From positions 75,567 through 139,566 of the forward strand of contig LNEL01000064.1 in NCBI GenBank assembly GCA_001464935.1: a stretch of 64,000 bases of DNA, given 5' to 3'. Under the pieces are notes generated by a model. The model saw only the letters and a list, made by a program, of their open reading frames with translations, was not told where the DNA came from and ran no database searches. This DNA is from Gammaproteobacteria bacterium Ga0077536 (GTDB taxonomy: Bacteria; Pseudomonadota; Gammaproteobacteria; Ga0077536). Positions 5,192 to 7,156 of the stretch are shown piece by piece. A program made the translations under genes and the position numbers. Position 1 is the first letter of the stretch; each line of letters opens with the position of its first letter.

Positions 5192-5515
5192 ATGCCAAAA
5201 GTGACATTCATCGATGCGGCGGGGAGTTCCCGCGTCATCAACATCCCGGCCGGCTGGTCGTTGATGGAAGGCGCCGTGCAGAACGACGTCACCGGTATCG
5301 CCGCCGAGTGCGGCGGCGGTTGCGCGTGCGCGACCTGCCATGTGTTCGTCGCGCCGGAATGGATCGGGAAACTGCCGGAGAAAAGCCCGGCCGAGAACGA
5401 TCTGCTCGAATGCACCGCGGTCAGCCGCACGCCGGCCTCACGTCTCAGCTGCCAGATCCCGATGAGTGATGCGCTCGACGGGCTCGTCGTGCATCTGCCC
5501 GAACGCCAGACCTGA
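5192..5515 (+). CDS. [2Fe-2S] ferredoxin, adrenodoxin/putidaredoxin type
   Basis: 107 aa with Cys ligand motif CGGGCACATCHV plus a distal Cys in LSCQI. Starts 12 nt after the ETF-QO stop. Confidence 0.8.
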   Translation: MPKVTFIDAAGSSRVINIPAGWSLMEGAVQNDVTGIAAECGGGCACATCHVFVAPEWIGKLPEKSPAENDLLECTAVSRTPASRLSCQIPMSDALDGLVVHLPERQT

Positions 5516-5532
5516 GACCGACGCCGCACGGA

Positions 5533-6765
5533 GTGCTCCCGATGCGACGCATCGTCATCATTGGTGCGGGGCAGGCCGGCCTGCAGCTGGCGGAATCGCT
5601 GCGCAAGGGCGGCCATGACGGCGAGCTGTACCTCATCGGCGACGAACGCTGGCCACCGTATCAGCGGCCGCCGCTGTCGAAAAAATATCTCGCCGAGGAT
5701 TTCGCCGACGCACGGCTGTTCTTTCGTCCACTCGAACACTACACCCGGCTGAATGTCGATCTGCGGCTCGCGACCCGCGCGACGGCAATCGAGCGCGCGG
5801 CGCAGCGCGTGGCGCTCGCCAACGGCGAATCGCTCGGCTACGACGGGCTCGCACTGACGACCGGCACGCGAGTGCGCCCGTTGCCGGTGCCGGGCGCCGC
5901 GCACCCGGCCGTGCACTACCTGCGCGGACTCGACGACGCGCAGGCGCTGAAGCAACGGCTCGCGGGCGCCCGGCGCGTCGTGGTCATCGGCGGTGGTTTC
6001 ATCGGCCTCGAAGTCGCGGCGACCGCGCGCCATGCAGACTGCGAGGTGCACGTCGTCGAAGCACTCGATCGCCTGATGGCACGCGTGATGCCGCCGGTGG
6101 TGTCCGACTTTTTCGCGACGCTGCACCGCGCCCATGGCACACAACTGCATCTCGGTGCCCAGGTCGCCGCGATCGAACCCGCCGCGGACGGCAGCGTCGA
6201 GGTGCGGCTGGGCGATGGCAGCGGGCTGCCCGCCGATCTCGTCGTGGCCGGCATCGGTGTGTTGCCGAACCAGGAGCTGGCCGTCGCCGCGGGTCTTGCC
6301 TGCGACAACGGCATCGTCGTCGACGAGTATGCACGCACCTCCGATCCCCTGATCGTCGCGGCCGGCGACTGTACCGTGCATCGCAACCTGCGCTATGAGC
6401 TGCCGCACCGGCTCGAGTCCGTGCAAAATGCCGTCGACCAGGCGAAGGTGGCGGCCGCAAGCCTGCTCGGGCAGGCGCAGCCCTATGCCGATCTGCCGTG
6501 GTTCTGGTCCGACCAGTACGAGGTCAAGCTGCAGATTGCCGGCCTTTCCGCCGGCCATGACAGTCACGTGCTGCGCGGAGAACCGTCCGCGGCGGGCTTT
6601 TCCGTGTACTACTTCAGGCAGGGGCGGCTCATCGCCGTCGACTCCCTGAACCGTCCGGCCGAGCACATGCTCGCGCGCCGTCTGCTGTCAGGCGGCACAC
6701 ACGTGCTGCCGGCCCAGGCCGCCGATCCGGCCTTCGATTTGAAAGCCCTGTTGGTCGCCACCTGA
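5533..6765 (+). CDS. FAD-dependent ferredoxin reductase (putidaredoxin-reductase-like pyridine nucleotide-disulfide oxidoreductase)
   Basis: 410 aa with two dinucleotide-binding GxGxxG motifs (IVIIGAGQAG, VVVIGGGFIGLE). The length and layout match class I ferredoxin reductases. Confidence 0.8.
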   Translation: MLPMRRIVIIGAGQAGLQLAESLRKGGHDGELYLIGDERWPPYQRPPLSKKYLAEDFADARLFFRPLEHYTRLNVDLRLATRATAIERAAQRVALANGESLGYDGLALTTGTRVRPLPVPGAAHPAVHYLRGLDDAQALKQRLAGARRVVVIGGGFIGLEVAATARHADCEVHVVEALDRLMARVMPPVVSDFFATLHRAHGTQLHLGAQVAAIEPAADGSVEVRLGDGSGLPADLVVAGIGVLPNQELAVAAGLACDNGIVVDEYARTSDPLIVAAGDCTVHRNLRYELPHRLESVQNAVDQAKVAAASLLGQAQPYADLPWFWSDQYEVKLQIAGLSAGHDSHVLRGEPSAAGFSVYYFRQGRLIAVDSLNRPAEHMLARRLLSGGTHVLPAQAADPAFDLKALLVAT

Positions 6766-6838
6766 GCGGACACAGGCCGTACCGGTCGCGCACCGCGCGA
6801 CCCTTAGCCAATGAAGCGATGCAGAGGGGGGAGGGGAC

Positions 6839-7156
6839 ATGCCGAAGGTGACCTATATCGACGTCGACGGAACGCGCTACGACTGTGAGGTGGCGAGCGG
6901 GCTGTCGGTGATGGAGGGCGCGGTCAACAATGGCGTCCCGGGCATTCTCGCCATCTGCGGCGGCAGCTGCGCGTGCAGCACCTGTCATGCGTACATCGAC
7001 GACGCCTGGGCGGAACGAGTCGGCGGGCCGAACGACATCGAAGACGCCACGCTCGATCTCGCCAACGAACGCAAACCGACCAGCCGGCTGACCTGCCAGG
7101 TGCAGATCACCGATGCGATGGACGGGCTCGTCGTGCACGTCGCGAAGAACGACTGA
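6839..7156 (+). CDS. [2Fe-2S] ferredoxin, adrenodoxin type (second copy)
   Basis: 105 aa with CGGSCACSTCHA plus LTCQV, paralogous to the 5192 ORF. A strong GGGGAGGGG RBS precedes it. Confidence 0.8.
   Translation: MPKVTYIDVDGTRYDCEVASGLSVMEGAVNNGVPGILAICGGSCACSTCHAYIDDAWAERVGGPNDIEDATLDLANERKPTSRLTCQVQITDAMDGLVVHVAKND

Follow-up and report, generated by a model that had tools for sequence, protein, structure and literature searches.

In Rhodopseudomonas palustris, the reductase PuR works with two adrenodoxin-type ferredoxins, Pux and PuxB, in the electron chain of the cytochrome P450 CYP199A2. PuR is encoded away from its P450, and the genes of the system are dispersed, with one ferredoxin gene beside that of the P450. 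The chain of P450cam, composed of putidaredoxin reductase (PdR) and putidaredoxin (Pdx), is encoded together with the P450 in camCAB, and the pair ArR/Arx of Novosphingobium aromaticivorans belongs to the same kind. Here, we analyse a locus of the Gammaproteobacteria bacterium Ga0077536 that encodes proteins with the same folds and cofactor motifs: a [2Fe-2S] ferredoxin (Fdx1), a reductase (FdR), and a second [2Fe-2S] ferredoxin (Fdx2). The trio is located on the plus strand at positions 5192–7156 of a 64,000-nucleotide stretch of contig LNEL01000064.1, which we call the window and to which all coordinates refer. Unlike the R. palustris genes, both ferredoxin genes of the trio flank the reductase gene, the unit ends an operon formed by the electron-transfer flavoprotein (ETF) genes etfB and etfA and the gene of ETF:quinone oxidoreductase (ETF-QO), and no P450 is known for it. 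We consider it somewhat better than an even chance that the trio is an ordinary class-I-type module, in which electrons pass from NADH through FdR to the ferredoxins, that it is co-transcribed with the ETF genes, and that its clients are encoded elsewhere. The trio proteins are unremarkable representatives of a familiar type of electron chain; the novelty lies in a conserved operon of six genes, and in the fact that an uncultured clade combines two ferredoxin subtypes with one reductase between them. Literature searches for an operon combining ETF-QO with a ferredoxin reductase found nothing relevant.

FdR (5542–6765, plus strand, 407 aa) is a flavoprotein of the PdR/BphA4 family composed of two dinucleotide-binding folds and a Reductase_C domain (Pyr_redox_2 E 1e-69, Pyr_redox 5.9e-23, Reductase_C E 1.9e-33). 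Its best match among solved structures is PuR (3FG2, E 6.9e-109), followed by PdR (1Q1R, 3.5e-100) and ArR (3LXD, 4.8e-92). Both GxGxxG motifs are invariant among 20 homologues, and so is Glu172, the last residue of the NAD-binding strand; the invariant glutamate, together with what is known of the family, points to NADH as the electron donor. FdR scores below the cutoffs of its best NCBIfam equivalogs (390 versus 650 for AndAa, a reductase of anthranilate dioxygenase, and 352 versus 450 for HcaD). Its start codon is ATG 5542, in agreement with the 407-aa database protein and preceded by GGAG at 5530–5533, and not the GTG 5533 of the open reading frame (ORF) list.

Fdx1 (5192–5515, plus strand, 107 aa, Pfam Fer2 E 7.5e-9) starts after a 12-nt gap that follows the stop codon of ETF-QO at 5179. 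Fdx2 (6839–7156, plus strand, 105 aa, Fer2 E 1.1e-8) has a strong Shine-Dalgarno sequence of its own, GGAGGGG at 6830–6836, directly before its ATG. Both ferredoxins match the four-cysteine pattern Cx5Cx2Cx36-37C of adrenodoxin- and putidaredoxin-type ferredoxins. PuxB is the best solved match of each. Fdx1 matches PuxB with an E-value of 1.7e-29, HaPux with 2.4e-29, FdVI with 2.8e-29, and putidaredoxin with about 1e-24; Fdx2 matches PuxB (3HUI) with 4.2e-32 and FdVI (1E9M) with 6.7e-32, at about 55% identity as counted by eye. The nearest solved structures of the two also include terpredoxin (all between 1e-24 and 4e-32). Mitochondrial adrenodoxins and the E. coli ferredoxin Fdx are far weaker matches, with the human ferredoxins at about 1e-10. 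A sequence-only reading of the window had described the trio as an adrenodoxin-type ferredoxin, a PdR-like flavoprotein, and a second ferredoxin with its own ribosome-binding site, placed 12 nt behind ETF-QO and followed by a convergent crotonase gene, and had recognised the composition of a class I P450 or Rieske-type electron supply. All of this is borne out: the three ORFs are real and lie at the coordinates given, with the start of FdR corrected as above, and the composition is that of a class I (P450-type) or class IIA (Rieske-type) chain.

The same reading called the second ferredoxin paralogous, but simple paralogues the two are not. Fdx1 and Fdx2 share 45% identity and are separate in a neighbour-joining (NJ) tree, and they likely represent two subfamilies, although trees of proteins of about 105 residues are weak and of low resolution. 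Fdx1 groups with ferredoxins encoded upstream of a reductase, including ones directly after a P450 gene in Hydrogenophaga, Macromonas, Ideonella, and an Azospirillum-labelled metagenome-assembled genome (MAG). A GW(S/T)LM motif and a C-terminal LPxxQ(T/S) are common to Fdx1 and the ferredoxins of the P450 operons. The four cysteine ligands and the C-terminal LPxxQT are kept in 13 orthologues of Fdx1. The Fdx1 C-terminus LPERQT resembles what we take to be the VPDRQW of Pdx, whose match to the ferredoxins lies at about 1e-24 to 1e-26, but Fdx1 is without the terminal tryptophan of Pdx. Fdx2 groups with ferredoxins encoded downstream of a reductase in Hyphomonadaceae and other Alphaproteobacteria, and its cysteine ligands, the motif AICGGSCACSTCH, and the C-terminal VAxND are kept in 12 orthologues. 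We assign Fdx2 to an FdVI/PuxB subtype from E-values of about 5e-32 to both proteins, a group defined by no curated model or established function. A recent tandem duplication of one ferredoxin is rejected by the 45% identity and the different subfamilies. The sequence-only reading had named an isc/hsc-type ferredoxin as one of the findings that would speak against it; both proteins lie far below the isc-type model TIGR02007 (46.4 bits for Fdx1 and 47.0 bits for Fdx2 versus a cutoff of 132.1), and an isc/hsc operon setting is absent, as the neighbours of the trio in all loci are ETF-QO, FdR, and a crotonase gene or maiA.

The closest relatives of Fdx1 outside the clade, and some of the closest relatives of FdR, belong to P450-Fdx-FdR operons of Betaproteobacteria (Hydrogenophaga, Macromonas, Ideonella, Gallionella, and others). 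The order of ferredoxin and reductase genes is the same as in the trio, but a P450 gene stands in place of that of ETF-QO and a second ferredoxin is lacking. The P450 of these operons forms one conserved family with 65–88% identity, nearly identical to the P450-T2 of PDB entry 8FBC, which originates from a hot-spring metagenome and whose native role is undescribed (PMC11334723). The P450-Fdx-FdR arrangement is in its own right a widely conserved, uncharacterised three-gene operon in Betaproteobacteria (contigs L016, L022, L048, L074, L108, L113, and L122; L-numbers denote public contigs that carry the exact proteins of the window or their homologues). The family of 8FBC-like P450s is also present in Gallionella and Tepidicella.

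The gene order etfB-etfA-ETFQO-Fdx1-FdR-Fdx2 recurs in about 13 independent contigs from one uncultured gammaproteobacterial clade, the sampled members of which are all labelled as uncultured 'Gammaproteobacteria bacterium'. The placement of the trio behind the ETF genes, as the sequence-only reading had it, is thus not an accident of one genome. The carriers of the block are the window, L001/L002, L005–L011, L031, L093, L094, L103, and L174/L175; the block is only partly visible in L094, which starts within ETF-QO, and in L103, which ends after FdR. Habitats from which the clade was sampled include a drinking-water biofilter and soils; L009 and L093 derive from complete circular contigs of 5.85 Mb (ENA ERZ25071330 ctg580774) and 4.74 Mb (ERZ25072999 ctg322048), and the contig of the window measures 333 kb. 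L001 and L002 represent the same organism, and L001 is 99.8% identical to the window, with a single 25-nt indel as the sole difference over the shared 15.5 kb. Across the clade contigs, identity to the window is 78–95% for EtfB (72% for the truncated copy of L175), 73–94% for ETF-QO, 68–93% for Fdx2, 56–87% for Fdx1, and 48–79% for FdR. The spacer between ETF-QO and Fdx1 measures 9–21 nt in 13 of the 14 loci, the exception being the 77 nt of L093, and that between FdR and Fdx2 varies from 14 to 105 nt. The best 120 FdR homologues listed have identities of 56–100%, and each of the eight contigs read from among them (100, 79, 77, 67, 63, 60, 58, and 56%) carries the gene in the block. The gene of the nearest cultured ETF-QO, that of Arhodomonas (76% identity), is accompanied neither by etfBA nor by the trio.

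All three genes of the trio are under purifying selection, with ratios of nonsynonymous to synonymous substitution (dN/dS, window genes compared with three relatives) of 0.05–0.25. The ratio is 0.17–0.25 for FdR and 0.10–0.20 for Fdx1; that of Fdx2, 0.05–0.08, is as low as that of ETF-QO (0.05–0.14). The ETF-linked FdRs are monophyletic in an NJ tree of 90 reductases, and therefore the link between trio and ETF genes arose once. The neighbouring branches contain P450-Fdx-FdR loci (L016, L022, L048, and L074) together with orphan FdR and Fdx-FdR loci. The surrounding region is also syntenic in the clade, including genes for an RRM protein, gcdH, maiA, fumarase, PAPS reductase, and DAHP synthase. 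Since these include unrelated genes, the conservation of the block is partly inheritance, and given the single origin within a syntenic core, conservation alone cannot separate function from inheritance. The sequence-only reading had suggested that the trio is tied to acyl-CoA or aromatic catabolism; the evidence for such a tie is the position of the operon, which goes back to that single event and was passed on with the core, and we do not retain it as a conclusion.

The order of genes and the signals around them suggest one transcription unit from etfB to Fdx2. The genes etfB (1829–2578, Pfam ETF E 3.5e-43) and etfA (2581–3516, ETF and ETF_alpha domains on the identical gene of L001) encode the beta and alpha subunits of ETF, and the gene at 3548–5179 encodes a full-length ETF-QO of 543 aa (Fer4_ETF_QO E 1.2e-51, ETFQO_UQ-bd E 1.2e-42), all on the plus strand. 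In an alignment of the region upstream of etfB from nine clade members, the only well-conserved stretch is TTCGATCAAGGCGTTATTTGGTACCAT (1706–1732, plus strand), about 97 nt upstream of etfB and present once in the window. It resembles an operator or a promoter with an extended -10 element (TGgTACCAT), and may serve as the promoter of the operon. A consensus sigma-70 scan did not call TTCGATCAAGGCGTTATTTGGTACCAT, and consensus promoter and terminator scans are uninformative in the 67% G+C DNA of the window. The 128-nt GC-rich spacer that separates Fdx2 from the convergent crotonase gene (7157–7284, assigned to no strand) folds with -79.1 kcal/mol; the z-scores relative to shuffled sequences are -3.67 on the plus strand and -2.85 on the minus strand. 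It is probably a bidirectional terminator region and the 3' end of the operon, although a consensus terminator scan, which requires a T-run, did not call it. The spacer between FdR and Fdx2 is not unusually structured (z = 0.16), and Rfam has no match in the window. As several members have internal spacers that could not accommodate a promoter, we take etfB to Fdx2, together with TTCGATCAAGGCGTTATTTGGTACCAT and the structured 3' spacer, as one operon, in which the trio is probably co-transcribed with the ETF genes.

Based on these comparisons, we propose that FdR would take a hydride from NADH onto its FAD and pass single electrons to two non-redundant [2Fe-2S] ferredoxins, which would carry them to one or more acceptors encoded elsewhere in the genome; the specificity for NADH, the direction of electron flow, and the nature of the clients are inferred. 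In this view, Fdx1 and FdR are a co-inherited pair like those directly after the P450 gene in the operons of Betaproteobacteria, and their most likely clients would be P450s or further oxygenases that depend on a ferredoxin. Fdx2 may have a client of its own, one that varies less. In an ancestor of the clade, the three genes would have become attached to the 3' end of etfB-etfA-ETFQO and would since have been kept under purifying selection. The module would be expressed together with the ETF/ETF-QO route that carries electrons of glutaryl-CoA dehydrogenase (GcdH) and other acyl-CoA dehydrogenases to ubiquinone. The gene gcdH (292–1497, minus strand; phmmer E 2.7e-194 to 3GNC/3EOM/3D6B, Acyl-CoA_dh domains on the identical gene of L001) is divergent from the etf operon, and its product belongs to the class of ETF-dependent dehydrogenases.

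A client is not encoded nearby. Motif scans in all frames detected neither a P450 heme loop nor a Rieske motif in the window, and neither these scans nor Pfam and the annotation of called genes revealed a P450, Rieske oxygenase, or desaturase in its 64 kb or in the 5 kb further upstream, which extends the 25 kb over which the sequence-only reading had noted the absence and agrees with its view that the terminal acceptor lies elsewhere. Annotation covers positions 7–64 kb except for a few ORFs without matches. The sole monooxygenase there is a flavin-dependent luciferase-like enzyme (54264–55487). The rest are housekeeping genes, which encode the crotonase, a PilZ protein, maleylacetoacetate isomerase (maiA), acetoacetate-CoA ligase, class I fumarase, PAPS reductase, an iron-chelate ABC system, DAHP synthase, feoAAB, aceK-icd, signalling proteins, photolyase, Lhr helicase, glycerate kinase, HipA, an aminotransferase, SDRs, LpxR, glutathione peroxidase, MsrA, an MCP, and others; no known client of a ferredoxin is among them. 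Ahead of the window, the 5 kb taken from L001 contain genes for a molybdopterin oxidoreductase, an acyl-CoA dehydrogenase, an SDR, a hypothetical protein, and the RRM protein.

Three neighbours were considered as local clients and rejected. The position of the upstream molybdopterin oxidoreductase (L001, L005, and L010) is not conserved, and the protein bears a weak resemblance to Fdh/Nas enzymes. The PaaG-like crotonase is a variable insertion. The maiA gene is the usual neighbour downstream of Fdx2, and its product does not depend on a ferredoxin.

The sequence-only reading had treated the missing oxygenase as remarkable, and we do not share this view. Our background sample consists of 78 genome loci, 78 metagenome loci, and 2 further ETF-linked loci, 158 in total; it derives from scans of genomes and metagenomes with an FdR profile (at least 600 matches each, best 59%), which are an arbitrary sample and not a census of the clade. 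About 20 of the 158 loci have a P450 motif in their flanks and about 5 have a Rieske motif, with the reservation that the motif scans may miss divergent enzymes and that many of the sampled contigs are short. An oxygenase-less setting, found in about 85% of the loci, is normal for the FdR family, and the missing partner is therefore not to be read as an anomaly. Two studies state that native redox partners are often genomically separate from their P450s (PMC11889516, PMC9357085).

Several observations weigh against the proposed supply module with distant oxygenase clients. The search has named no client, as neither the window nor about 200 kb of related loci contains a P450, Rieske oxygenase, or desaturase. 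A sister-clade P450 profile search placed none on known contigs of the clade among the best 120 matches listed. Furthermore, the constraint on Fdx2 at the level of the core ETF genes and the synteny of the core region agree no less well with a housekeeping role than with that of a partner of a catabolic oxygenase.

A housekeeping function is the alternative that survives best, and we regard it as possible but distinctly less than probable. FdR would then supply two specialised ferredoxins that act in constitutive processes, such as Fe-S biogenesis or the synthesis of lipoate, heme a, or ubiquinone, instead of supplying catabolic oxygenases, in parallel with mitochondrial FDX1, FDX2, and FDXR. 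The mitochondrial proteins share a compartment with ETF and ETF-QO, and FDXR is from a different reductase family than FdR. They are likewise two adrenodoxin-type ferredoxins with distinct roles and one shared reductase (PMC3827102), but the resemblance is in the working of the system and not in family membership. In its favour, the block lies in the syntenic core and none of the clade members examined lacks it, and the dN/dS of Fdx2 is as low as that of ETF-QO. FdVI of Rhodobacter capsulatus, which together with PuxB is the best solved match of Fdx2, could not be deleted (there as FdE; PMC10936413), and is 'likely involved in Fe-S cluster biogenesis' according to Sainz et al. 2006, as cited in PMC3827102. 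The alphaproteobacterial pairs of FdR and Fdx2-like ferredoxins, including those of Hyphomonadaceae, likewise have housekeeping neighbours, with addAB, amgK/murU-like genes, and tsaE on one side and an acyl-CoA thioesterase gene on the other, and no oxygenase nearby; they differ from the trio in having no linkage to ETF. Several points speak against this function. Both ferredoxins fall short of the isc-Fdx model (46–47 versus 132 bits), the reductase belongs to the PdR family and not to the adrenodoxin-reductase or Fpr families of known housekeeping systems, and Fdx1 and FdR group with P450-linked pairs. In the related gammaproteobacterium Arhodomonas, the trio is lacking beside ETF-QO, and the arrangement of the genes, at any rate, is therefore clade-specific.

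It is improbable, in our estimate, that the ferredoxins exchange electrons directly with the 4Fe-4S cluster of ETF-QO. Electrons of ferredoxin-reducing dehydrogenases might thereby reach the quinone pool, FdR then serving as an overflow to NAD+, or electrons of NADH might reach quinone through FdR, ferredoxin, and ETF-QO. The start of Fdx1 within 9–21 nt of the end of ETF-QO in 13 of the 14 loci would suit such a contact. A precedent is provided by the homologous CtmE and CtmF of Castellaniella defragrans, a 107-aa [2Fe-2S] ferredoxin and an NADH:ferredoxin reductase that serve a non-oxygenase flavoenzyme, the oxygen-independent limonene dehydrogenase, in a pathway that needs ETF:QO, with the ETF:QO mutant impaired on limonene (PMC4109377). 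However, ctmEF lie beside their client ctmAB on a catabolic island, a neighbour of the kind that the trio lacks. FdR homologues adjoin etfBA or beta-oxidation genes in two unrelated lineages, Paraburkholderia (L038) and Terriglobia (L040), as well. In L038 (Paraburkholderia phymatum, 8329–13953), the order is enoyl-CoA hydratase (ECH), MaoC hydratase, FdR, ECH, etfB, and etfA, with an Amidohydro_2 gene nearby; in L040 (Terriglobia MAG, 8639–13300), it is Amidohydro_2, Fdx, FdR, and a FadB-like gene. These are independent associations of the FdR family with beta-oxidation-type and ETF genes.

Against direct coupling, the association of the trio with ETF arose only once, the canonical partner of ETF-QO, ETF itself, is present, and the operon contains no ferredoxin-reducing dehydrogenase. 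ETF-QO of the window is collinear with trio-less orthologues, with no extra domain or insertion; its alignment with that of Arhodomonas, at 76% identity, has one 1-aa gap. The transfer of electrons from ETF to ferredoxin would be uphill, as putidaredoxin-type clusters lie near -240 mV, and a non-pumping bypass from NADH to quinone is without obvious benefit. To our knowledge, no link between an adrenodoxin-type ferredoxin and ETF-QO has been described. Docking of the ferredoxins on ETF-QO or ETF, to which we give an equally low probability, would create a second, ferredoxin-based entry or exit at the ETF/quinone node, which could, for example, drain electrons from oxygen-independent dehydrogenases similar to limonene dehydrogenase into the respiratory chain.

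It is likewise improbable that the trio is a passenger, inserted once after ETF-QO and kept there only by rare rearrangement, with expression and function unrelated to ETF. The single origin of the association fits this possibility, as do the synteny of the whole region, including unrelated genes such as those of the RRM protein, maiA, fumarase, PAPS reductase, and DAHP synthase, and the small insertions of crotonase and PilZ genes found right after Fdx2 in some members and never within the block. However, the spacers are so short that a separate promoter would not fit, and the block is intact while its flanks are rearranged, with gcdH lost in L006 and L174 and different genes downstream. The passenger alternative concerns regulation only, and is compatible with the supply module for the biochemistry.

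An electron-bifurcating, FixABCX-like system, in which ETF would reduce a low-potential ferredoxin and ETF-QO the quinone, shares with the locus only the superficial gene content of ETF, an ETF-QO homologue, and a ferredoxin, and is highly improbable because EtfB carries the group-1 signature and matches the ETFs of Paracoccus and human with 1e-86 to 1e-98 but bifurcating ones with 1e-21 to 4e-26, because the 543-aa respiratory ETF-QO has its own Fer4_ETF_QO domain instead of being split into FixC and FixX, and because the ferredoxins are of the four-cysteine [2Fe-2S] adrenodoxin type with an NADH reductase of their own. Judged from this non-bifurcating signature and from the structural matches of EtfB (Paracoccus ETF 1EFP E 5.5e-98, human ETF 1EFV 1.2e-86), the ETF is of the canonical non-bifurcating type, and a bifurcating or Fix-like ETF is excluded on the same grounds. 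FixC models give 89–97 bits for ETF-QO, with cutoffs of 466–610.

The surroundings of the operon vary among the clade members. The convergent gene downstream (7285–8046, minus strand) encodes an enoyl-CoA hydratase/isomerase of the crotonase family resembling PaaG (TIGR02280; 335 bits for the window form and 351 bits for the L001 form, cutoff 345). It is a variable insertion and not part of the conserved block: it is missing at this position in L007–L010, L093, and L174, in which maiA directly follows Fdx2 (in L009 after one small hypothetical gene). The crotonase comprises 253 aa in the window and 260 aa in L001. At its 3' end, around position 7300, 25 nt of L001 are missing from the window, and L002 ends at window position 7299, which marks a likely assembly junction. 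A second candidate concerns feoB (18797–20855, minus strand), which is split into two ORFs in different frames with a 575-nt overlap, 19029–20855 with FeoB_N and Gate domains and 18797–19603 with FeoB_C and Gate domains; relatives have a single FeoB of 707–709 aa. The JGI contig L091 matches window positions 7660–19551 exactly and ends there, and the split is probably an artefact of an assembly join, or else a pseudogene. Two tandem feoA genes (20858–21383, minus strand) lie upstream of feoB.

The genes for maiA and acetoacetate-CoA ligase, both above their equivalog cutoffs, and class I fumarase follow one another at 9113–13267 on the plus strand, and these enzymes handle end products of the homogentisate pathway of tyrosine and phenylalanine. 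In most relatives, maiA directly follows Fdx2 on the same strand. Upstream of the RRM gene, L006, L007, and L008 contain genes for an acyl-CoA dehydrogenase and an SDR together with an APH-family kinase, a DUF6285 protein, and a crotonase, a cluster reminiscent of 4-hydroxyacyl-CoA catabolism with its combination of kinase and acyl-CoA dehydrogenase. The acyl-CoA dehydrogenase and SDR of L001, L005, and L010 are instead preceded by a cytoplasmic molybdopterin oxidoreductase of about 706 aa with weak similarity to Fdh-alpha. Further along the window, the longest ORF of the region 28400–30130 (28821–30131, 436 aa) matches nothing in Pfam, and the frame that carries the coding signal changes several times there. 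A HipA-like kinase gene with a HipA_C domain (40939–42246, plus strand) is followed by small unannotated ORFs.

If the trio is the supply module that we propose, the analysis would name the probable native redox partners, one reductase and two ferredoxins, of the ferredoxin-dependent enzymes of this widespread clade, partners expressed with the ETF/ETF-QO entry point of the respiratory chain and not with a particular oxygenase. The practical value of this would be modest. Two studies describe the finding of native partners for orphan P450s as a recurring practical problem (PMC9357085, PMC11889516). The pairs of FdR-family reductases and ferredoxins are usually located far from any oxygenase. 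The locus would be of wider interest only if its ferredoxins exchange electrons with ETF-QO, or if they form a bacterial counterpart of the division of labour between FDX1 and FDX2.

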